This document shows positions 1 through 31,665 of a stretch of DNA of 32,000 nucleotides, one piece after another. Position numbers and translations under genes: made by a program. The notes under the pieces were generated by a model, which saw only the letters and a list, made by a program, of their open reading frames with translations, was not told the origin of the DNA and made no database searches. This DNA comes from Pantanalinema rosaneae CENA516 (GTDB lineage Bacteria > Cyanobacteriota > Cyanobacteriia > Leptolyngbyales > Leptolyngbyaceae): contig NZ_JBLZFZ010000032.1 in assembly GCF_050753385.1 (NCBI RefSeq), positions 50,594-82,593 on the forward strand, read 5' to 3'. Each line of letters begins with the position of its first letter. Position 1 is the stretch's first letter.

Positions 1-1242
1 AATTACATGGGGAATCTGCAACGGGGCTGGTTAGGCACTCGTCCCGTCACCGATGTGATTGTCAAACTGGATGCGATCGCGCAGGATTATGATTTTGGCG
101 GCACTCGCCTCTCGCCCTTAGCAGAATTCGATCGGCAGTTAAGTGTGATCAATGCCCGTTACCGCACAGGGGATGGTACAGGAGCCGCCAATGTGACTCC
201 GGCAACCTCCTGTGTGCAGGACTCTAACCAGGCATTATTTCTGACGATTCAACGAATTCGGGAGACGGTTGCCGCTAATCCGACGATTCAAAACTGGTGG
301 TCATCTCACCCGGATGATCCTACGGTGAAGCGGTTTGAGCGGTTAGTCGCCTTGGGGAATGATCTGGAAACCCAATTAATGCCCTTTGGCATTGTCCGAG
401 GCGATTGGAAATCGAATGCGAATGCGCTATCGGGAACCCAAATTCAGCCAGAGAACTTTACGCGTAGCGACTCAAATCTGCCAGAAAATACTCTCGCAGC
501 GTTCACCAGTTGGCGCACCATTCTGCCCCGACAGGCACAGGATGAACTCAGTATTCTATTTCTGCGTCACGGAGCCACATTATGGTTCTTGCAAACCAAT
601 CAAGTTGGGGGACGGAATCCGGCGATTCTACCGATCGCCCCAACGCAAGCCTTTGCCCGGTGGACAATTCCCGGTACGACAGTCCCGATCGTGTCTGTTT
701 TGTTTACGCGCATTTTAGGCTCCTTGAAACTCCCGAGCCTGTGGGACTGGAGTGTGACCTTCGGGATGTTGTTGGGGTATGGGGTTCTGGCAACGACGAT
801 CGGATTTGCTCACGGTTGGTTGCAGGTTAAACCCTGGTCTGCCTCAAAACAACGCTATTTCCTGTTAATGGGACGGGTGTTTTTCCTCCCGGCTCTCTTA
901 GAAGAATGGGTGTTTCGCGTGTTACTGCTGCCCTATCCACGGGCGGGTGTCACCGGACAAATGTGGATTACCTGGGCGATCGTCAGTCTGATTCTTTTCG
1001 TGGCTTACCATGCGATCGTGGCTAGAACGGTAGCCAAACAACAGCGTACTTCTACCCTGTTACATCCGATCTTCCTGATCCTGACCGGCTTACTCGGAGT
1101 TGCCTGCACCCTGACCTACTGGCTGACTGGTTCGTTGTTACTGATTACCCTGATTCATTGGGTGGTGGTTGTCGTCTGGTTAACCCTATTTGGCGGCATA
1201 GAGAAACTGCAACGATCGTCGCGATATAGTTTCTCCCGGTAG
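1..1242 (+). CDS. CPBP (CAAX protease / Abi) family intramembrane endopeptidase with a large N-terminal domain of unknown function; probably 5'-truncated by the window edge
   Basis: The frame is open to base 1, with no stop upstream of the ATG at 7. The C-terminal ~150 aa are hydrophobic helices carrying CPBP motifs EEWVFR (EExxxR) and FVAYH (FxxxH), plus a later His (LIHW). I recognise no motif in the N-terminal ~260 aa. Confidence 0.7.
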   Translation, partial: NYMGNLQRGWLGTRPVTDVIVKLDAIAQDYDFGGTRLSPLAEFDRQLSVINARYRTGDGTGAANVTPATSCVQDSNQALFLTIQRIRETVAANPTIQNWWSSHPDDPTVKRFERLVALGNDLETQLMPFGIVRGDWKSNANALSGTQIQPENFTRSDSNLPENTLAAFTSWRTILPRQAQDELSILFLRHGATLWFLQTNQVGGRNPAILPIAPTQAFARWTIPGTTVPIVSVLFTRILGSLKLPSLWDWSVTFGMLLGYGVLATTIGFAHGWLQVKPWSASKQRYFLLMGRVFFLPALLEEWVFRVLLLPYPRAGVTGQMWITWAIVSLILFVAYHAIVARTVAKQQRTSTLLHPIFLILTGLLGVACTLTYWLTGSLLLITLIHWVVVVVWLTLFGGIEKLQRSSRYSFSR

Positions 1243-1247
1243 TTTGC

Positions 1248-1682
1248 CTATTGAGTTGGCAACACATTCTCCTGCATTAAGCGGGCAACCATGGCGGCGC
1301 GAGAGGTGACTCCCAGCTTCATAAAGATGCGGCGGAGATAGGTGGAGACGGTACAGGGACTGATGGCAAGTCTTCTACCGATCGTTTTGTTGGGTAATCC
1401 CTGGGCGATTAATTGCGCGATCGCCATCTCGCGAGGACTTAAACAGATCGATGAGTCACTGGTATGTTTACGCCGAACGACATAATATTCGGTTTCATCA
1501 ATGCGTAATTCAAAAATCACTTCGTGGATGGCTCCGGCTGTCTCCCGTAACACTTTAATAGGCTTCCAGGGAACCTCTGTTTGACTGAGCGATCGCACTA
1601 ATAAATCCTGTTCAATTTGAGCTACATCAGGGGTTTTTGACAACGGTTTGGATAATTCTTGGGTATTCATCATTTGACTCAA
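1248..1682 (-). CDS. LuxR/GerE-family helix-turn-helix transcriptional regulator (small, 144 aa)
   Basis: The C-terminal segment LSPREMAIAQLIAQGLPNKTIGRRLAISPCTVSTYLRRIFMKLGV is a typical LuxR-type HTH. The gene is convergent with the CPBP gene (5-nt gap). It is divergent from the 2.2-9.6 kb operon across a ~560-nt AT-rich spacer. Confidence 0.8.
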   Translation of the reverse strand: MSQMMNTQELSKPLSKTPDVAQIEQDLLVRSLSQTEVPWKPIKVLRETAGAIHEVIFELRIDETEYYVVRRKHTSDSSICLSPREMAIAQLIAQGLPNKTIGRRLAISPCTVSTYLRRIFMKLGVTSRAAMVARLMQENVLPTQ

Positions 1683-2241: not shown

Positions 2242-3129
2242 ATGAACCGCATTTCCATTGGGAGTAATGCAATGTTGGATGGAGAAACCCTACAACACGA
2301 ACTCGAAAGTGAGCTTGACAACGAGTTTGAATATGAACTGCAAAACGAATATGACATGCAGCATGAATATGAAGGTGAAGAGTTTTTGGGCGGTCTGGTG
2401 GGTGGAGCTATGAACGCTTTGGGATTAGGGGAAGGCGAAGGTGAGTATGAAGGTGAGTACGAAAGTGAAGCCTTTCTTGGAACAGTACGCAAACTCGCCA
2501 GTCGCTTAAAGCAGGTTGTTCCCAAAGTCGCGCCCTATGCTGCCCGCCTGGTTGGGACAGCGATCGGGGGGCCCCAACTGGGTGCCACCTTAGGGCAGGT
2601 GGCGCGGCAGAGTGAGTTTGAATTTGAGTTTGAAACCGTGGGACAACTCGAATTTGAAGGGGAACTAACAGGTGAATTTGAGTTTGAAACCATGCCCCAA
2701 ATGGAAACCCTGGCAGAAGCGTTGGCTGGAGCCGCTACCAAAGTCCAAAACGAAGCGGAAGCCGAAGCCTATATAGGAGCGGCTGTCACCCGAGTGCTAC
2801 CTGCAAAGTCGGTGGCGGTGCAAAAACAGGTTCCGGCGATCGTCAAAGCATCGGCTGAACTAGCTCGGGGTTTACGGAAACATCCGAGTACCCGTCCTCT
2901 AGTGCGGATTCTGCCGACTGTGGCGCAACGGGCTGGACAAGTTCTGGCACAAAAAGCCGCGCAAGGGCAACCCATTACGCGCCCAGTAGTTGCCCAGGTA
3001 ATGGCAACACAAACGCGAAACGCCCTTAAAAGTCCGATCGCAACGGCGCGAATTGTTGCAACTTCAGCGAAAGTGGCACAAAAAATTACCCAACCTGCTC
3101 CTACATCTCGCAGGAAGGTACGGAGTTAA
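2242..3129 (+). CDS. Hypothetical modular protein A1: three acidic (E-aromatic-E)n tracts, each followed by a hydrophobic/cationic segment, then a long basic Ala/Gln/Arg-rich C-terminus
   Basis: Long ORF. The likely true start is ATG 2272 (GGAG 7 nt upstream), which aligns LQHELESELDNEFEYE with the paralog's YQHELEMLDRELESEFE. Tracts include EFEYELQNEYDMQHEYEGEE, EGEGEYEGEYESEA and SEFEFEFETVGQLEFEGELTGEFEFE. It is a paralog of the next gene, sharing EAEAEA-[FY]IG, TRPL[VI]R..PT[VI]A and A[KA]QGQP. Confidence 0.7.
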   Translation: MNRISIGSNAMLDGETLQHELESELDNEFEYELQNEYDMQHEYEGEEFLGGLVGGAMNALGLGEGEGEYEGEYESEAFLGTVRKLASRLKQVVPKVAPYAARLVGTAIGGPQLGATLGQVARQSEFEFEFETVGQLEFEGELTGEFEFETMPQMETLAEALAGAATKVQNEAEAEAYIGAAVTRVLPAKSVAVQKQVPAIVKASAELARGLRKHPSTRPLVRILPTVAQRAGQVLAQKAAQGQPITRPVVAQVMATQTRNALKSPIATARIVATSAKVAQKITQPAPTSRRKVRS

Positions 3130-3190
3130 TTACGACAGTTGAGTGTCACTACGTCCAGATACAACCTATTTACTCAGGAGAAATTCACTC

Positions 3191-4015
3191 ATGTATCAGC
3201 ATGAACTAGAAATGTTAGATCGAGAACTGGAATCGGAATTTGAAACTGGCGTGATGGGAGAAACCGATCGCGAATTTGAATACGAGTACGAGAGCGAAGA
3301 GTTTCTGCCCTTGTTGGCTCCAGTTTTGAAAGCAGCGGCTCCTATGGCAATTCGCGCGATCGGTGGACTGTTTCGGCGGCGGCGTAAGCGGGGTCAGCGA
3401 GAATTTGAACTGGAATTTGAAACCCCGTTACAGGAGTTTGAATTGGAAGGTGAATATGAAGGTGATCCCTTCATTGGTAATCTGCTGCGGACGCTGGGCA
3501 GTGCCGTGGGTGGCGAGGGTGAATTTGAGTTTGAGCAACATCCAGAAGCGATGCCAGAGTTTGAAACTACGCCTGCCAATGAATATGAAGTGACGGCAGA
3601 ACACCTGGCGCACATGGCTGCGAATAGCCAGAGTGAAGCGGAAGCGGAAGCCTTCATTGGTTCACTGATTCCGATGGTGGCGCGGGGCATTAGTGCGGCG
3701 GCTCCGGCGCTAACTCGGATTGCCCCGCAGGTGATTCGACCAATGGCACAGGCAGGGCGGGCGTTATTCCGCAATCCCCGCACTCGTCCGTTAATCCGCA
3801 CCTTTCCGACGATCGCCCGTTCTACTATGTCTACTCTGGCGCGGCAAGCCAAGCAAGGACAACCGCTCAACGATCGAGTGGCGGCTCGGGCAGTGGCTAG
3901 CAATGTGGCTAAGGTATTGGGGAGTCCCCGCCGGACGGCATCTGTGCTGCAACGATCGCGGCAAGTTCACGGTCGGCATTGCTCCTGCGGGGCAAATCAG
4001 CGCCCCCGGTTCTAA
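3191..4015 (+). CDS. Hypothetical modular protein A2, paralog of A1 (acidic EFE tracts alternating with hydrophobic/cationic segments; basic C-terminus)
   Basis: ATG 3191 is preceded by AGGAG 10 nt upstream; the track's GTG 3143 start is less likely. Tracts include ELESEFE, REFEYEYESEE, REFELEFETPLQEFELEGEYEGD and EGEFEFEQHPEAMPEFE. There is a polybasic RRRRKRGQR run. The C-terminal half is collinear with A1. Confidence 0.7.
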   Translation: MYQHELEMLDRELESEFETGVMGETDREFEYEYESEEFLPLLAPVLKAAAPMAIRAIGGLFRRRRKRGQREFELEFETPLQEFELEGEYEGDPFIGNLLRTLGSAVGGEGEFEFEQHPEAMPEFETTPANEYEVTAEHLAHMAANSQSEAEAEAFIGSLIPMVARGISAAAPALTRIAPQVIRPMAQAGRALFRNPRTRPLIRTFPTIARSTMSTLARQAKQGQPLNDRVAARAVASNVAKVLGSPRRTASVLQRSRQVHGRHCSCGANQRPRF

Positions 4016-4054: not shown

Positions 4055-5413
4055 ATGAATTGGTTGATGAATACGGTGGAGAATGGGGCGGCGAGTCGAG
4101 TGACTCAACGGGCGTTGGCAGAGCTATATCAGGAAACGGCTCCTGAAAGCTGGGTCGAGCCGCCTAACTTAGATCCCTGGTTACGGGCGCAGGCAATTAA
4201 TGTGGTGCGTCATGTGGAGGCACTGCGTCCCTTTCGTCCAGGGGAGTTTGGGACGGAGGCTGCCAGTCCCAGTGATGCCCACATCGATGCAGCAAACCAA
4301 CTGATTGCCCGCCTGCGATCGCACCTGCAACGGGTAGCTACCACTGTAACCAGCAGTGTTCAGGTGGCGATGCATCAACCGGAAACGGTGTATTTGCAAC
4401 GGATGCTTGCCCGTAAGGATCGGGCGCATGATCTGGTGCGGATGATCGAGCAAATCTGGGATTTTTACTTTGAGTTGTTTGGGCAGCGCCAGAGTCAGTT
4501 TGGCACCTGGTTACTGGGGTGCGATCGCATTGCGCTCGACTGTTATCAGGATGTGTATATGGGCTTGGGTAAAGCGAAGTCGATTCCGGCACCACCGCCG
4601 TTCTCCTATGTCAAAACGGGATTTTCGCCTGCCACCTTCCGGCGCGGCATTCCCCTGACCAAGTTGAGTCAGCAATTGAATCCCTTTCCCCTGATCCAAT
4701 TGCCCTATCACCGCCTGGTCAACCCCTGGACATTGGGAGCGATCCTGCATGAGGTGGCACATAACCTGCAAACCGATTTAGGCTTACGCCAAACCATTCC
4801 CAAGGCGATCGCAGCGCGTTTATTAAAGGCGGGCATGTCTCCTGAGGTGGCAGCGATCTGGACAAAGTGGCACAGTGAAACCTTTGCCGATCTGTCGGGC
4901 TTGCTGTTGGGAGGCCCCTATATTGTGGCTTCCCTGATGGATATTGCTTCGCGATCGCCCCAGAGTACCTTTGCTTTTCATCCCGGTGCGCCCCATCCTA
5001 CGCCTTATCTGCGGGTGTTTATCAGCACCGAACTTTTGCGACGGATGGGGTTTCCCAAAGCGGCAGATCATTACAACCGCATCTGGAAACGGCTGTATCC
5101 CAATCCTCGGACGGGTAATATTCCAGCCGCCATGCTCAATACCTTCGATCGGGCACACAAACTGGTAGTGGATACGATCTGCTACACGCCCTATGCCGAA
5201 CTGGGTAACAAGTCATTGGCGGAGGTGACGGGATTCCGACCGCATCACCAGCAAATGATTGAGGAAGCCGGACGACGGTTAGCGCAGGGCAACGATCCGG
5301 GCATCATTCCCGAACGCTTGCTCATCTGTGCCTCCCGCCATGCGATCGAGCGCCGACTGGCAGCACCGGGAGTGATTACGGAAAACTTCTATAAAGCTTT
5401 AGCAAGGAGATAG
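4055..5413 (+). CDS. Putative zinc metallopeptidase (HExxH motif, possible gluzincin), family not recognised
   Basis: AGGAG lies 8 nt upstream of the ATG. The single HExxH is in GAILHEVAHNLQTD. About 35 aa downstream is a candidate third ligand Glu (WHSETFADLSG). No signal peptide or TM segment is seen. Confidence 0.6.
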   Translation: MNWLMNTVENGAASRVTQRALAELYQETAPESWVEPPNLDPWLRAQAINVVRHVEALRPFRPGEFGTEAASPSDAHIDAANQLIARLRSHLQRVATTVTSSVQVAMHQPETVYLQRMLARKDRAHDLVRMIEQIWDFYFELFGQRQSQFGTWLLGCDRIALDCYQDVYMGLGKAKSIPAPPPFSYVKTGFSPATFRRGIPLTKLSQQLNPFPLIQLPYHRLVNPWTLGAILHEVAHNLQTDLGLRQTIPKAIAARLLKAGMSPEVAAIWTKWHSETFADLSGLLLGGPYIVASLMDIASRSPQSTFAFHPGAPHPTPYLRVFISTELLRRMGFPKAADHYNRIWKRLYPNPRTGNIPAAMLNTFDRAHKLVVDTICYTPYAELGNKSLAEVTGFRPHHQQMIEEAGRRLAQGNDPGIIPERLLICASRHAIERRLAAPGVITENFYKALARR

Positions 5414-5419
5414 TACAGC

Positions 5420-7129
5420 ATGAAACGATATCGAATTCGGGGGAGGGTTCAGCCGAACGTTGGCGACTACGAAGCTGGTTTACGGGTGGAAGCCTGGGAT
5501 GAGGATCGGCAATATGATGATCTGTTGGATGCCGTTCGCACTGATACCCGTGGCGTATTTGAAATTACGTTCGATGAGGATGACTTCCAGCAGGAGCCGA
5601 CTGAGACAGAACCTAGACCTGACCTATATTTCAAGGTGTTTCGAGGTGAGGAATTATTAGGGCGGACTCCCACCCAGGCAGACTTTTTACTCGATGAATT
5701 TGACGATGCTTCAGAACAACCTCGATTTTCCTTCCCCATCGCTTTGCCCAATCAAAATCCGGGTTCCTGGCTACAGCTCTTGGAATTACGGCAGACCAAT
5801 TTCCAGCCGGAAGACGGTCGTCCTCCGAGCCACTTCCCAGAGACAGGGTCGGTGCATGTGGTGGATGTATTGCCCAGTCTCGATCAAATTCAGCGATCGG
5901 GCAGAATGGCGACTGTTTCGACTCCCACCCATTCCGGTGGTGACTTACAGGGCATTGTGGAAGGGGCATTAGGCACCATTCTTGGCAATACAGCGAGAAC
6001 CGATGATGCCAAGACTCTGGTGAATACCCTGACCCAAACCTTTGTGGCTCGTCAGGTGGATGGCAGAACGGTGTACGACTGGAATCCCCGATCGGTGGCA
6101 GTCCGAGCCTCTGACCTGGGGGGTGGCATTACCGGAGCGCAGGCCAGTCTTTACCATCGAGCCAAAACGGCAATTCAGGATGGCATTCAGTTGCTGAACA
6201 GTCTCTATCCCCTCAAATCAGCGGCGGATAAGGAGAACATGGAAGCGACGCGAGCGATCGTCCGGACTGAAATGCAGGAATTGTTAGCCGAACTAGGAGC
6301 GCGGGGGGGCCCCCGGATTTTGCGGGTCGATAATTTATTTCAACTGCTGCTGGGTGGAGAGGAGATCAATGGTAATCAGCGAGTTGGCGGGCAACTGAAG
6401 CGATTGATGGAGTTCTTTGGGTTGCTGCCCAGCCAAATTAACACCGTGGAAGAAGAACAAAATTACAGTAATTTCCTGACGCTCAAGGATTACCTGCAAT
6501 CGCTCCAGAGAAGCTGGGTGGACTACAAACGTAGCCAGGATTCCAGTGCCGGAGCCTATATTGGGACTCAATTAGTCCGATTGGCACAGGCGCTTGCTGT
6601 GGTTGGTGAGTCGGTGCAGGAAGTGTACCGGATTATGGAACTATTCTTCCTGGGCCCAGAGGAGCGGCTGTCGGTCTATATCGACTTCACCCGGGCGCGG
6701 GCTGAGACGTTTTCAGATAGCCTGCCAGGAGCCGCAAGTTCCCAAACTGGAGCCTTTCCGTTACCGGATGGGACGGCGTATCCAGTGCGTGATACCGCTC
6801 AACTACGCGACTCGATGACAGTAGAAGGGTTGCTGAATTGGGTGTGGCGGTTTGCCACCGAGGAAGGACCGTTATTAGCGAAATCGGGTGGCAAGTTAGG
6901 CATTCAAGTAATTGCCGAAACCAGCGATCGCTTGATGATTCTGACCCAAGCCGCGACCTATACCCCGATTCCCAATGCCGCATTCCGGCGGGAAGGTGTG
7001 ATTCGGGCACTGCGAGATCTAGCATTCCAGCTTTACCAGGTGCGCCAATTAGCCGACCAGGTGAAACTCCCGATCGGGGATCAGCCCGATGATCTCGATT
7101 TTGCCCCGTCACTGCTCCGTCTGACCTAA
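5420..7129 (+). CDS. Hypothetical protein with an N-terminal prealbumin/carboxypeptidase-regulatory-like beta-sandwich signature
   Basis: The start is 6 nt after the upstream stop, with AGGAG overlapping that stop (translational coupling). The N-terminal ~85 aa read RIRGRV..G..EAGLRVEAWDEDRQYDDLLDAVRTDTRGVFEITF...PDLYFKVF. This has the spacing typical of transthyretin-like or carboxypeptidase-regulatory domains. The remaining ~480 aa are unrecognised and mostly helical-looking. Confidence 0.6.
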   Translation: MKRYRIRGRVQPNVGDYEAGLRVEAWDEDRQYDDLLDAVRTDTRGVFEITFDEDDFQQEPTETEPRPDLYFKVFRGEELLGRTPTQADFLLDEFDDASEQPRFSFPIALPNQNPGSWLQLLELRQTNFQPEDGRPPSHFPETGSVHVVDVLPSLDQIQRSGRMATVSTPTHSGGDLQGIVEGALGTILGNTARTDDAKTLVNTLTQTFVARQVDGRTVYDWNPRSVAVRASDLGGGITGAQASLYHRAKTAIQDGIQLLNSLYPLKSAADKENMEATRAIVRTEMQELLAELGARGGPRILRVDNLFQLLLGGEEINGNQRVGGQLKRLMEFFGLLPSQINTVEEEQNYSNFLTLKDYLQSLQRSWVDYKRSQDSSAGAYIGTQLVRLAQALAVVGESVQEVYRIMELFFLGPEERLSVYIDFTRARAETFSDSLPGAASSQTGAFPLPDGTAYPVRDTAQLRDSMTVEGLLNWVWRFATEEGPLLAKSGGKLGIQVIAETSDRLMILTQAATYTPIPNAAFRREGVIRALRDLAFQLYQVRQLADQVKLPIGDQPDDLDFAPSLLRLT

Positions 7130-7193
7130 CGCCCTGCTATCTCACAGCATTCATAGCTTGGTCATTTGACCCCGTTGATTCAGGAGAATTTCG

Positions 7194-8318
7194 ATGTCCA
7201 CAACTGGAGAAAATCAAGATTTACTCGATCGCATTGCGGCGTTAAAAGAAACGCTGGTCGATCAACTCGGTTCCCAACTGATTCAAAATCCTCAACTTGC
7301 CGATGCCCTCACACAACGGATTGAGGATATGTTAAGTCAGGCGATCGCGGCGAATTCAGCCATGCCTACCCCTGCCGATGGGGGCTTGGCAGAACTGATT
7401 GGGTTGGGGAAAGATGCCGCGAAAACGGTGACGGAAACCCGCTTGCCCCAAGGGGTAGAAGACTATGACGAACAGGTTGCCAGCGATCGCATTCTGTCGG
7501 TAGCGGATCTGTACTACCTCTACCAGATGGAGAAGGTGGGAGTCTTTCGAGTAGTTCGCAAACTACAGGAGTTATTTGATGCCGGAGCGGTGCGGCTGTC
7601 TACGGGGGATGGAGCCTACGGGCTATATCGCTTCGATCGCCGCAGCACTCTGCGCTACACGGAACGCAACCGGATGCAAACCTACCGCCGGGTGTTTGGC
7701 TATACCACGATTCCGCCGATGCCGAGCGCCAAGCCCAATACCCAGTTCCACGGTATGTTTACCCAATTCATTAACAGTGTGGCAGCCTTCTGGCGTGATA
7801 AGCGGATTTCCGATGTGATTCGGGAACGGGCTTACGATCCCAGTTTTGGCAGTATTGCCACAGTCCGACGAGCCGGATTGGATTTACGCAATAACTTGAA
7901 ATGGAATTCCTATGGACACATTAATGTGTTCCGAATTGAAACCCTGCAACTGTTGGATGAAGCCTTCCGAATTCTGGGAGCAGACGATGTCCGGAAGTTA
8001 TTTGGTGCTGACAATGCCTGGGATGTGGTGGAAGAGGTGATGTTGCGTTACTTCAACAAACAGGTGAATGCCTCCCAACGGCATCGGATGGCAACCTCTG
8101 GTCGATCGATGATTCGCTGGTTGGCACAAAAGTATATTCTCAATACATCACGGGCAGAATTTGAGGCCTTGCTACGTGAGATTGCCGATGTGGCGGAAGA
8201 GTGGCTGACCAGTGCAGAAGTGTTGGGGATTGCCTTTCGGGGAAATGTGCAACGCGTTGCACCGATCGCAGCGAATCGCGATGGCGGTGTCATGCCTCTA
8301 CGTGCCGGACAAGGGTAA
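7194..8318 (+). CDS. Hypothetical protein (374 aa), no recognisable motif
   Basis: AGGAG lies 8 nt upstream of the ATG. It is on the same strand and in the same operon as its neighbours. Codon usage resembles the neighbours, and it contains HIP1 sites at 7341 and 7483. Confidence 0.6.
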   Translation: MSTTGENQDLLDRIAALKETLVDQLGSQLIQNPQLADALTQRIEDMLSQAIAANSAMPTPADGGLAELIGLGKDAAKTVTETRLPQGVEDYDEQVASDRILSVADLYYLYQMEKVGVFRVVRKLQELFDAGAVRLSTGDGAYGLYRFDRRSTLRYTERNRMQTYRRVFGYTTIPPMPSAKPNTQFHGMFTQFINSVAAFWRDKRISDVIRERAYDPSFGSIATVRRAGLDLRNNLKWNSYGHINVFRIETLQLLDEAFRILGADDVRKLFGADNAWDVVEEVMLRYFNKQVNASQRHRMATSGRSMIRWLAQKYILNTSRAEFEALLREIADVAEEWLTSAEVLGIAFRGNVQRVAPIAANRDGGVMPLRAGQG

Positions 8319-8393
8319 GTGCCGATCGGGTGGGCACTGCCCACCAAGCTTGGATCGCGGTGATGATTCTGTTAGTAGAAGGAAGGCTAGGCA

Positions 8394-30435: not shown

Positions 30436-31665
30436 CTAAAGTCCAATCGCATCGATCGCAGCGAGAACGGCTTTAGGAGCAAGTTGGTCTTTAAACCAGA
30501 CGATCGTCGCTGGGGTTTGATCAACTTTGATCCCGGCATGATCCAGATTCAGCCGCTCGGAAATTGCCAGTACCAAATCATCGCGCCCTGACTGCCGGAC
30601 TTGGGAAAACTTTTTCTTCAGGTATTCGGGTCGCCAGTAACCAACAATTTCCAACAATAGTGTCCGACCATCGGGATGAACCAGCCGGAAATCGGGAATC
30701 ATCACACTGCCCGGAATCGGAATCAGATCCACCTCTCGTTCCAACTTCCACTCGGTTTTTGCCTTTGCCCACCGTTCCACAAATCCCGCTTCTAACATGC
30801 TGTCGTAGGTTTTGCCAGGGGGATAATGGCTCACCAGCCCATTGTCAGATTCCAGTGTAAAGCGCCCCGATCGCACTGTCCCGGAGTAACTATCCTTCAT
30901 CTGTAAGGTAGCCGCTAAACTCCACTTAGTCACATGCAGCAGAGCAGGCAGCATCATCGCCAGTTTGAGCCCATAGTGGGTGTTGGGTTTAAACAGGCTC
31001 GTCGGACCATCGATCGTCAGTGTAAACCCATGATCCGCATCCCCTTCGATGTAGGTCATCAGCCCAAATAGCTTGAGATACCGGAATAACAGTTTGTACT
31101 CGCCTGGATCGTTGCGGTGGGCATTCAAAACGACCTGGCTGGCGCGGTAAAACACCCCTTGTACCTGAGACAGGTTGTAGCGGTGGAGTAGGGCTTCTGG
31201 GGTGGGGGCATCAAACTCGGTCAGAATTTGATTATCTGATAAATCAGCATACAGTCCGGCTTGAATTTGAGTCGGCAATACTTCATGCCCCAGTTCTGCC
31301 GTCAGGCGATCGGCTAAGGTCTGTAGTGTCGTTTGGGTTGCCTGGGGGTGGGGAGCCGTTTGAGCGGACAGGGCAAACACCCGTTGCCGCAGCATGGGTG
31401 GATCGAGGGGACTGATCGTTTCAAACTTGCTAAAGGTATCGCTACTCAGGAGATGCGCCAGCCCTCGCTTAATCCGATAGTCGGTACTTTCGCCTTCCAG
31501 TTCTTGCAGTTGGCGGTTGAGTTCTCCCCGAGTGCCGCCTTTGGCTTCCTGATATAGGGTAATTAATTCTGTCGCGATCGCCAGGTTCTCCTGATTCAGG
31601 CTTAACCGTTTGGGAATCACGGTTTCACCACTATAGCGATGCATCAGCAGATCACTGGGTAACAT
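30436..31665 (-). CDS. DUF790 (Bax1-like) family endonuclease
   Basis: The N-terminus is MLPSDLLMHRYSGETVIPKRL. The C-terminal segment MIPDFRLVHPDGRTLLLEIVGYWRPEYLKKK is PD-(D/E)xK-like and characteristic of DUF790. Confidence 0.8.
   Translation of the reverse strand: MLPSDLLMHRYSGETVIPKRLSLNQENLAIATELITLYQEAKGGTRGELNRQLQELEGESTDYRIKRGLAHLLSSDTFSKFETISPLDPPMLRQRVFALSAQTAPHPQATQTTLQTLADRLTAELGHEVLPTQIQAGLYADLSDNQILTEFDAPTPEALLHRYNLSQVQGVFYRASQVVLNAHRNDPGEYKLLFRYLKLFGLMTYIEGDADHGFTLTIDGPTSLFKPNTHYGLKLAMMLPALLHVTKWSLAATLQMKDSYSGTVRSGRFTLESDNGLVSHYPPGKTYDSMLEAGFVERWAKAKTEWKLEREVDLIPIPGSVMIPDFRLVHPDGRTLLLEIVGYWRPEYLKKKFSQVRQSGRDDLVLAISERLNLDHAGIKVDQTPATIVWFKDQLAPKAVLAAIDAIGL

Follow-up and report, generated by a model that had tools for sequence, protein, structure and literature searches.

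A tandem pair of glutamate-aromatic tract proteins opens a conserved operon with a tagged, variable effector slot in at least nine bacterial phyla: a possible effector-arming system

We analysed a 32,000-nt window of the genome of Pantanalinema rosaneae CENA516 (contig NZ_JBLZFZ010000032.1), to whose positions all coordinates of the window's genes refer, and found that a tandem gene pair within it, here called A1 and A2, opens an operon that is spread over at least nine bacterial phyla. Both proteins contain acidic tracts, in which Glu alternates with Phe, Tyr or Leu, and cationic, glycine-rich segments between them. The pair is followed by the gene of an invariant HExxH protein and, further 3′, by a variable slot whose products often carry acidic tracts of the same kind. 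With a probability of roughly 0.4, we read the operon as an undescribed polymorphic-effector system, in which A1 and A2 would be latent membrane-active constant components processed by the HExxH protein, and the acidic tracts would be a handle shared across the system. Slightly less secure, and offered tentatively, is the wider proposal of an unrecognised, phylum-spanning effector-arming system, antibacterial or suicidal, in which the Glu-aromatic tracts would represent a new class of pro-piece or tag, the A1/A2 heterodimer a protease-activated glycine-zipper translocon, and all five or six core proteins would be unrelated to known machinery for secretion, injection or defence. The elements of the gene pair are as follows.

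2272..3129, forward strand: A1, first gene of the conserved tandem pair, A1-type, with the junction EAEAEA-[Y/M]xGA (open reading frame (ORF), homolog alignment)
2383..2430, forward strand: A1 short glycine-rich module FLGGLVGGAMNALGLG (FLGG), with acidic tracts on both sides; fits the 14-residue unit of the family
2473..2613, forward strand: A1 long cationic glycine-zipper module FLGTVRKL...VGTAIGGPQLG... (translation; GxxxG enrichment family-wide)
2752..2769, forward strand: A1 EAEAEA junction, the most conserved motif of the family; YIGA starts at 2770
2770..3126, forward strand: A1 Arg/Ala/Pro-rich basic C-terminal domain, whose hidden Markov model recovers A-type ORFs in related loci
3191..4015, forward strand: A2, second gene of the pair, A2-type, with ...MEHLxHxAxxxxSEAEAEAFIGAL... 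(ORF, homolog alignment)
3302..3400, forward strand: A2 module 1 FLPLLAPVLKAAAPMAIRAIGGLFRRRRKRGQR (FLPL; includes RRRRKRGQR), net charge +8, homologous to EEF[F/L]xxLAxLARRA... of other phyla
3470..3514, forward strand: A2 module 2 FIGNLLRTLGSAVGG (FIGN), a short glycine-rich unit after EGDP (translation, family unit)
3635..3652, forward strand: A2 EAEAEA junction, with E149, E151, A152, E153, A154 and G157 invariant; FIGS from 3653
3653..4012, forward strand: A2 basic C-terminal domain TRPLIRTFPT...LARQAKQGQPL... (family alignment, profile search)

A1 and A2 are genuine conserved genes. Their starts at 2272 (MLDGET..., MLDGETLQHELESE...) and 3191 (MYQHELE..., MYQHELEMLDRELESEFE...) are both backed by comparison with homologs, and the 274-aa 'hypothetical protein' P0001 of CENA516 at NCBI is 100% identical to A2. 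A first-pass annotation of this DNA had described them as tandem paralogs, and indeed the two proteins align with 33% identity over 216 columns (E 5e-29). Neither has a relative in Pfam, NCBIfam, PADLOC, PHROGs or the PDB, the last searched both by sequence and with the family profile. Glu makes up 35 of ~280 residues in the A proteins. A1 contains 21 and A2 22 non-acidic E-x-E triplets, where 5000 shuffles gave 3.6 ± 1.7 and 3.7 ± 1.7 (maxima 11 and 12), an alternation ~6 times the shuffled expectation; for E-[FYWL]-E the counts are 12 and 16, with 0.6-0.7 ± 0.8 after shuffling. Charge per 20 residues runs from -4 to -8 in the N-terminal halves (~150 residues) and from +2 to +5 over the final ~120 residues. 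These values bear out two earlier claims, that the Glu/aromatic alternation is real and that the proteins are charge-segregated. The tracts had also been predicted to form amphipathic beta-strands, in agreement with their significant strand-type hydrophobic moments, and the segments between them are amphipathic as helices; A2 module 2 reaches a helical hydrophobic moment of 0.63, which was matched by 0 of 500 shuffles. The A1 tracts of Gemmataceae, Beijerinckiaceae and Paraburkholderia are rewritten with His and Glu (HHExHHE, HEFEQHE, GELHELGELHE; L057 1055-2134, L072 347-1297, L086 6784-7797), a composition that suggests metal or pH responsiveness.

All module starts proposed earlier (FLGG, FLGT and YIGA in A1; FLPL, FIGN and FIGS in A2), together with both EAEAEA motifs, were matched on translation, and two units recur across the family. 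The first is a glycine-rich unit of 14 residues, [F/W]LGx[I/L]xxxxGxLLG, present in 0-3 copies per protein and sometimes in tandem. The second is a cationic unit of ~50 residues with a mean charge of +8, whose core AAPxVGTAIGGP is near-invariant among A1 orthologs. Module number differs between homologs in the manner of cassettes. In 124 long modules we counted 624 GxxxG-type motifs, compared with 250 ± 17 after shuffling, a 2.5-fold enrichment, and the modules show the repeated (G/A/S)xxxG in an amphipathic or hydrophobic segment that defines a glycine zipper. Such cationic, helically amphipathic and glycine-zipper-rich segments fit membrane activity, and candidates for it include FLPLLAPVLKAAAPMAIRAIGGLFRRRRKRG, FIGNLLRTLGSAVGG and FLGGLVGGAMNALGLG.

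The boundaries between tracts and modules were scored at 302 tract-to-segment transitions in 157 homologs. Tracts end in AE (120 transitions) or EE (88), and the segment then begins with an optional A, Q or P followed by [F/M/Y/W]-[L/F/I]-[G/R]. These junctions (EGEEFLG, EGEEFFRR, SEAEAEAMxGA/FIGAL) are the best-conserved positions of the N-terminal half, in which tract length and module number vary, and EYESEEF[L/F] and SEAEAEA[F/M/Y]xGA are near-invariant motifs of the family. Loss of the module boundaries in homologs had been named as an outcome that would speak against the modular reading; in this set they are conserved. The EAEAEA element stands before the last module, as described in the first-pass annotation, which had taken it for a spacer. 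From its composition we infer that it sits in an Ala/Glu-rich, helix-like stretch, and as it is also the most conserved motif of the family it is therefore distinct from the E-aromatic-E tracts rather than one more of them.

The C-terminal tail that follows, earlier noted as basic and shared by the paralogs, is conserved over ~120 aa, but as a domain rather than as a peptide, with the family pattern ...AAPxxxRxAPxLxRG...TRPLVRTxPTxxRRT...LARQxxxGxPVT... This domain defines a protein family, an outcome that the annotation had left to be checked. Searched exhaustively with a profile, 1.84 billion cluster representatives yielded 1023 at E<=1e-3, of which 350 reach E<=1e-30; the family size of ~1,000 counts representatives at 50% identity. 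By word-index search, 334 relatives came up in Cyanobacteria, Chloroflexota, Streptomyces and Solirubrobacterales; each is named 'hypothetical' and lacks a Pfam domain. In some extra copies the domain carries further C-terminal extensions. Third, A2-like copies with unclassified extensions lie in the variable slot (L014 14704-15852, L013 13679-14608, L056 9182-9898), and the A2 domain appears able to serve as a carrier module. Numerous A2 orthologs end in CxxC-rich tails.

The HExxH protein served as the probe for related loci, and a relative is encoded in 265 of 185,579 species genomes. The 80 loci kept cover Cyanobacteria, Acidobacteriota, Chloroflexota, Actinomycetota, Planctomycetota, Deinococcota, Binatia, Pseudomonadota and a metagenome-assembled genome (MAG) labelled Heliomicrobium; a complete operon lies on a Paraburkholderia chromid. 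ORFs of the related loci were called mechanically, and many of the loci are MAG contigs. The operon is compact, and its gene order is common to the window and to the Streptomyces, Anaerolineae, Blastocatellia, Scytonema and Paraburkholderia loci: A1, A2, the HExxH gene, sometimes a small helical protein, a 'large' protein with immunoglobulin (Ig)-like repeats, a 374-aa protein and the variable slot. In the window the genes around the A pair are the following.

1248..1682, reverse strand: LuxR/GerE-type helix-turn-helix regulator, divergent from the operon (Pfam GerE, E 6.8e-18)
4055..5413, forward strand: invariant HExxH protein (~450 aa), directly 3′ of the A pair, with HEVAH at 4748-4762
5420..7129, forward strand: short form of the 'large' protein, with an N-terminal transthyretin/CarboxypepD_reg-like domain and a conserved ~380-aa C-terminal domain; weak TTR-52 match
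7194..8318, forward strand: conserved 374-aa all-alpha protein, ~60% identical between cyanobacteria and Streptomyces/Anaerolineae
8394..9620, forward strand: variable-slot effector with a ~135-aa N-domain, DLEFEDE tag, EAEWEFE linker, EAEA/F junction and candidate hydrolase toxin domain with HLIQDSYSPAH

Co-occurrence of the core genes extends to 73-83 of 83 loci. In 70 of 83 sources the HExxH gene is immediately preceded by exactly two A-type ORFs, counts of this kind including truncations at contig ends. Within the pair the first gene is always of A1 type (EAEAEA-M/Y) and the second of A2 type (MEHLGHAA...EAEAEAFIGAL), and from this constant order it follows that the duplication is ancient and that both copies have been retained, which suggests a heteromer. 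Homologs of the LuxR-type regulator stand beside the operon in 61 of 83 loci, those of Streptomyces, Anaerolineae, Blastocatellia, Scytonema and Paraburkholderia among them. The large protein was found in 73-75 of 83 loci; its short form in the window aligns at 35-38% identity with the C-terminal portion of proteins of 976-980 aa that bear CarboxypepD_reg/SpaA-like repeats, the Ig-repeat proteins named above. The small helical protein between the HExxH and large proteins is not found in cyanobacteria. BLASTP against the distant Streptomyces and Anaerolineae loci confirmed that these three window genes have orthologs there, the 4055-5413 product being 59-66%, the 5420-7129 product 35-38% (over the C-terminal domain) and the 7194-8318 product 59-62% identical. 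Outside cyanobacteria, a pair of M20 peptidase and Amidohydro_2 genes closes the operon in about half of the loci (including L001, L003, L084 and L086) but is missing in the window; its products might break down released peptides or attack the stem peptides of the cell wall.

Pfam, NCBIfam, PADLOC and PHROGs hold no family for the HExxH, large, 374-aa or small helical protein, the weak TTR-52 match of the large protein aside, and no core protein matched the PDB by sequence or profile. An anti-phage or phage origin likewise found no support, with zero PADLOC and PHROGs matches for all core proteins and no tblastn match in 50,697 phage records. The 374-aa family has more than 3288 homologs, a lower bound, none of them annotated, and its AlphaFold2 model is poor (predicted local distance difference test (pLDDT) 59) and without a Foldseek fold match. 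Scans for promoters and terminators returned fewer sites than the shuffled expectation and were uninformative. A contractile-injection link was considered on account of a sheath gene 2 kb 3′ of the operon in the Streptomyces locus; tblastn found one in no other locus, and we regard the case as a coincidence.

The HExxH protein is 58-86% identical across phyla and belongs to a family of more than 2,800 homologs, again a lower bound. In 34 aligned sequences from several phyla, H232, E233, H236, E275 and D279 are invariant, and the predicted helices at 224-241, which holds the motif, and at 273-286, which holds E275, give the arrangement of a gluzincin, with HExxH on a helix and, downstream, a Glu as the putative third zinc ligand. 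We found no zincin fold or peptidase family for it among Pfam, NCBIfam, PDB sequences and profiles. The AlphaFold2 model (mean pLDDT 69, residues 230-452 at 70-97) is all-helical, and a Foldseek search with it against the PDB and BFVD gave nothing at E<=0.001, the invariant region 145-226, which directly precedes the motif, being modelled at pLDDT <50. 'Metallopeptidase' is thus a motif-based label, and a reasonable reading of the sequence. A distant homolog (27% identity) is encoded on plasmid pBq66S1MBa of Bradyrhizobium quebecense (L087), in a cluster at 5064-13136 with a patatin-like phospholipase, a DUF2252 protein, a phospholipase D (PLD)-like protein and two CHAT-domain proteases. The cluster represents another locus of conflict type, likewise uncharacterised, and this setting gives a weak hint that the HExxH family belongs to conflict systems.

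Acidic tracts extend beyond A1 and A2. They are found at the N-termini of variable-slot proteins or as linkers between their N-domain and C-terminal domain, and an E-x-E-x-E tail ends the 374-aa protein at its extreme C-terminus in 22 of 80 family members. The strict motif E-hydrophobic-E-x-E occurs in 22 of 69 slot ORFs; among the remaining ORFs of these loci the count is 53 of 1969 (odds ratio 17, p 2e-16). Of the 22 tagged slot ORFs, 14 carry it within their first 45 residues. As the tracts also tag enzymes of the same operon, they are more than a charge mask.

Pfam matches among the slot ORFs comprise PG_binding_1 (12 ORFs), PG_binding_3 (6), Trypsin (6) and OmpA (5), then Peptidase_S8, M15, Het-C, Endonuclease_NS_2, GIY-YIG and VWA7_N (2 each), and single matches to M74, VanY, SLT, CHAP, phage-tail lysozyme and papain; trypsin-OmpA proteases are among the tagged products. 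Judged by these predicted domains, the slot holds a repertoire of antibacterial or cell-death effectors. The slot product of the window (8394-9620) has an EAEA/F junction identical to that of A2 and a toxin domain with weak VWA7_N matches. The H-x3-D-x5-H motif of this domain resembles that of zinc phospholipase C. A relationship of Het-C to zinc phospholipase C and S1-P1 nucleases has been proposed (PMC3482391). The same ~135-aa N-domain and acidic linker precede three different C-terminal regions, namely that with HLIQDSYSPAH in the window, one in L006 that is GIY-YIG-like by eye and one in L018 that is unclassified. A conserved N-terminal module with variable C-terminal toxin domains, the architecture by which PMC3482391 defines polymorphic toxins, is therefore found in the slot proteins. 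Some cyanobacterial slot proteins consist of extreme repeats (L025 14556-16205 and 16540-18036, L029 14311-15963), with dozens of EYEG units followed by dozens of RRPAPAA or RKAAPAARKAAS units, which look like acid/base repeat pairs in a single protein; one of them has a weak Josephin-like C-terminus (E 0.0013).

The polymorphic-effector reading would join these elements as follows. A1 and A2 would pair via their homologous C-terminal domains, probably into a heterodimer. The acidic tracts would neutralise the cationic segments and keep them soluble, and would at the same time be the common handle recognised by the neighbouring HExxH protein. Thermolysin-type enzymes typically cleave before a bulky hydrophobic residue, and the HExxH protein would most likely cut at the junction E-[E/A]|[F/M/Y/W]. 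The freed glycine-zipper segments could then insert into and permeabilise a membrane, through which the co-encoded enzymes would reach the cell envelope, either of a competitor or of the producer itself. The first-pass annotation had likened the A proteins to pro-peptides whose anionic pro-piece masks a cationic membrane-active peptide. The existence of a family, its conserved junctions, the cationic amphipathic glycine-zipper segments and the invariant HExxH neighbour are all in line with that idea, but the tracts also tag enzymes and the C-terminus is a domain, so the idea stands only in part.

Several observations weigh against this mechanism. Cleavage at the junctions has no direct sign in our analysis, and the junction is rare in the slot proteins, where [F/M/Y/W][L/F/I] follows just 12 of 76 tracts, so that a common cleavage junction is not supported there. 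For the HExxH protein an all-alpha structure is predicted, and Pfam, PDB sequences and Foldseek gave no peptidase match, the motif being what speaks for peptidase activity. Some lineages have tracts that are E/H-rich or ELHE-periodic instead of strictly alternating, a pattern equally compatible with a pro-piece and with a role tied to metal or pH, and these His-rich variants may keep a metal or pH trigger in play. Export is left unexplained: no signal peptide was seen (judged by eye, with no predictor), the flanks differ between genomes with no conserved transporter, ATPase or injection-system gene, and no genes of the known delivery routes, namely Sec/type II secretion system (T2SS), type V, VI and VII secretion systems (T5SS, T6SS, T7SS) and Photorhabdus virulence cassettes/extracellular contractile injection systems (PVC/eCIS), are conserved within ±10 kb in 82 loci. 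Self-protection is left unexplained too, as no conserved family of small downstream (immunity) genes was recognised.

The main rival is a model without cleavage, which we think somewhat unlikely. In it the tracts would be beta-strand 'stickers' that bind the Arg-rich C-terminal domains or form sheets with divalent cations, A1 and A2 would be multivalent scaffolds or adaptors that bring the tagged enzymes together in a particle or condensate, of which the 374-aa and Ig-repeat proteins would also be building blocks, and the HExxH protein would have a different role. Tags on many unrelated enzymes and at the C-terminus of the 374-aa protein are what this model expects, as is the pairing of acidic with Arg-rich repeats in single proteins (EYEGE, then RRPAPAA/RKAAPAA, in the L025 14556-16205 and L029 14311-15963 products). 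The extended, carrier-like A2 domains of the slot copies, the poor conservation of the junction in slot proteins and the lack of a peptidase fold match for the HExxH protein also favour it. It does not, however, explain the conserved glycine-zipper segments and E-[E/A]-F-[L/F]-[G/R] junction of A1 and A2, nor the invariant HExxH...E signature of their obligatory neighbour, and the tract composition of A and slot proteins from the same locus matches only marginally (cosine 0.57 vs 0.50, p 0.05).

Less plausible still is regulated self-lysis or cell death, in which A1 and A2, under LuxR control, would attack the cytoplasmic membrane of the producer itself in the manner of holins and the signal-less hydrolases, nucleases and proteases would destroy the cell, in the context of abortive infection, developmental lysis or the release of public goods. 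Speaking for the producer as the target, no export signals or immunity genes were found, and the slot proteins lack export signals and transporters though they bear peptidoglycan-binding and OmpA domains. The mix of nucleases, proteases and phospholipase-like (Het-C) domains resembles abortive-infection effector sets, the distant HExxH homolog of the Bradyrhizobium plasmid has patatin and PLD phospholipases and CHAT proteases as neighbours, and carriers of the operon are enriched in filamentous and multicellular lineages. Against this, no PADLOC defence model was matched. The polymorphic slot and the Ig-repeat protein speak for a competitor as the target: a recombining slot with conserved N-terminal carriers is more typical of inter-cellular antagonism, and the large protein resembles a component for binding or adhesion.

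We consider it quite improbable that A1 and A2 are metal-, calcium- or pH-responsive acidic proteins for buffering, storage or mineral scaffolding, with functional tracts, a structural anchor as the rest and no toxin function. Their very high Glu content and the His-rich tracts of Gemmataceae, Beijerinckiaceae and Paraburkholderia (HHExHHE, GELHE repeats) would suit such a role, and to this extent the metal-binding alternative of the first-pass annotation receives a hint. The operon context is nevertheless dominated by hydrolytic effector domains, the tags are located on enzymes, no transporter or mineralisation gene is linked, and the glycine-zipper and junction motifs would be left unexplained. 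We give hardly any credence to a secreted bacteriocin or ribosomally synthesised and post-translationally modified peptide (RiPP) with a multi-core precursor, whether cyanobactin-like or of the two-peptide class IIb, and rejected it since, despite tandem paralogs with GxxxG-rich peptides, short cassettes in variable number and an adjoining putative protease, the proteins are too large (250-400 aa with a conserved 120-aa C-terminal domain), have no double-glycine leader and are accompanied, in the window operon and its conserved neighbours, by no ATP-binding cassette (ABC)/C39 transporter, YcaO, radical-SAM, lanthipeptide or PatA/PatG-type enzyme.

We compared the operon with known systems. Like the polymorphic toxin systems with releasing peptidases described by Zhang, Aravind and colleagues in 2012 (PMC3482391), it has conserved N-terminal carriers with interchangeable C-terminal toxin domains, a slot rich in peptidoglycan hydrolases, nucleases, proteases and Het-C, and a metallopeptidase-like protein in the locus. 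Unlike them, it shows no T2SS/Sec signals, T5-T7SS, PVC/eCIS, RHS, PAAR, LXG or HINT, its core proteins have no family assignment and immunity genes were not recognised. On targeted reading, that survey does not list acidic E-x-E tags among the trafficking signals. The N50 packaging signal of the PVC effectors Pdp1 and Pnf (PMC9054023) is similarly a short transferable N-terminal peptide on unrelated operon-end effectors. Here, in contrast, no sheath, tube, baseplate or Pvc15-type ATPase is linked (the coincidental Streptomyces locus aside), and the tag is also internal and multi-copy.

The eukaryotic precursors of antimicrobial peptides offer another parallel. In the prepropeptides of frog dermaseptins and temporins and in promelittin, an acidic pro-region precedes a cationic amphipathic peptide that often starts with FL- or GL-, and multiple copies and Glu-Ala spacers occur. 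The A proteins share this charge-segregated layout, at most by convergence. They differ in having no signal peptide (by eye) and no dibasic KR sites, in their Glu-aromatic tracts, which also tag enzymes, in their large conserved C-terminal domain and in that processing is only predicted. Caulobacter CdzC/CdzD and the class IIb bacteriocins are small (<~100-150 aa) and come with secretion leaders, a dedicated ABC/type I secretion system exporter and an immunity gene. They likewise form an adjacent paralog pair rich in GxxxG/glycine zippers, and the known toxins target membranes in bacterial antagonism; no such exporter or immunity gene is linked to A1/A2. Bacterial gasdermins are latent membrane permeabilisers adjoining a protease that removes an inhibitory piece. 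The logic proposed here, a latent permeabiliser beside a putative protease, would be analogous, but the two are unrelated in sequence and fold, inhibition would here fall to several internal acidic tracts, the HExxH 'protease' is unclassified and PADLOC gave no match. Designed (FE)n/FEFEFKFK and EAK16 peptides are synthetic self-assembling amphipathic beta-strands, and in the tracts, too, Glu alternating with Phe, Tyr or Leu would give a strand with one acidic and one aromatic face. We know of no natural use of such strands as a protein tag.

The resemblance to polymorphic toxins, pore formers, paired toxins and antimicrobial peptide precursors is one of logic only, with no shared defining component. 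Full-text literature searches and targeted reading of PMC3482391, PMC7159879 and PMC9054023 turned up no account of the operon, of the A family or of the tag. The functional interpretation of the operon is drawn from sequence and context. If the polymorphic-effector reading is correct, the operon would be a new effector system with no homology to T1-T11SS, contractile injection systems, Tc, Rhs or umbrella particles, and would bear on soil and mat bacteria whose antagonism is poorly known (Acidobacteriota, Chloroflexota, filamentous Cyanobacteria, Planctomycetota, Actinomycetota). It would also provide a bacterial counterpart of the precursors that join an anionic pro-piece to a cationic peptide, give a context to the large unannotated A, HExxH and 374-aa families, and make (E-aromatic)n a simple transferable cargo tag that could serve engineering. 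Should the proposed mechanism prove wrong, the operon, which is conserved, and its tagged effector slot would still be solid, testable observations.

Upstream of the operon, one further gene adjoins that of the LuxR-type regulator.

7-1242, forward strand: CPBP/Rce1-like intramembrane protease with a ~270-aa N-terminal extension

We considered its product as the processing enzyme and rejected it, since a homolog was found in 1 of 83 loci only; the gene is probably unrelated to the operon. Downstream of the slot lies a small gene (9886-10380, forward strand) with no family match, which most likely goes with the gene that follows it and whose product may be a partner of the NB-ARC (STAND) NTPase encoded there (10443-13901, forward strand). 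The NB-ARC domain is followed by 17 TPR_10/TPR_12 stretches with ~14 near-identical 42-aa units GRYAEAEPMYQQALALRQRLLGEDHPDVATSYNNLAALYYSQ, an array that is either a very recent expansion or prone to assembly collapse, and a 622-aa antisense ORF at 11695-13563 is an artefact of these repeats. An NB-ARC gene stands beside the operon in the window and not in the other genomes. A stretch of lower GC content (13929-16053, reverse strand; 0.43-0.46 vs ~0.53) encodes a fatty-acid desaturase (13929-15098) and a PIN-domain VapC-like toxin (15646-16053), beside which no antitoxin ORF of >=120 aa is listed. At the window edge, a full-length DUF790 protein is encoded on the reverse strand (30436-31665, E 3.6e-155), whose usual helicase partner, if present, would lie beyond that edge.

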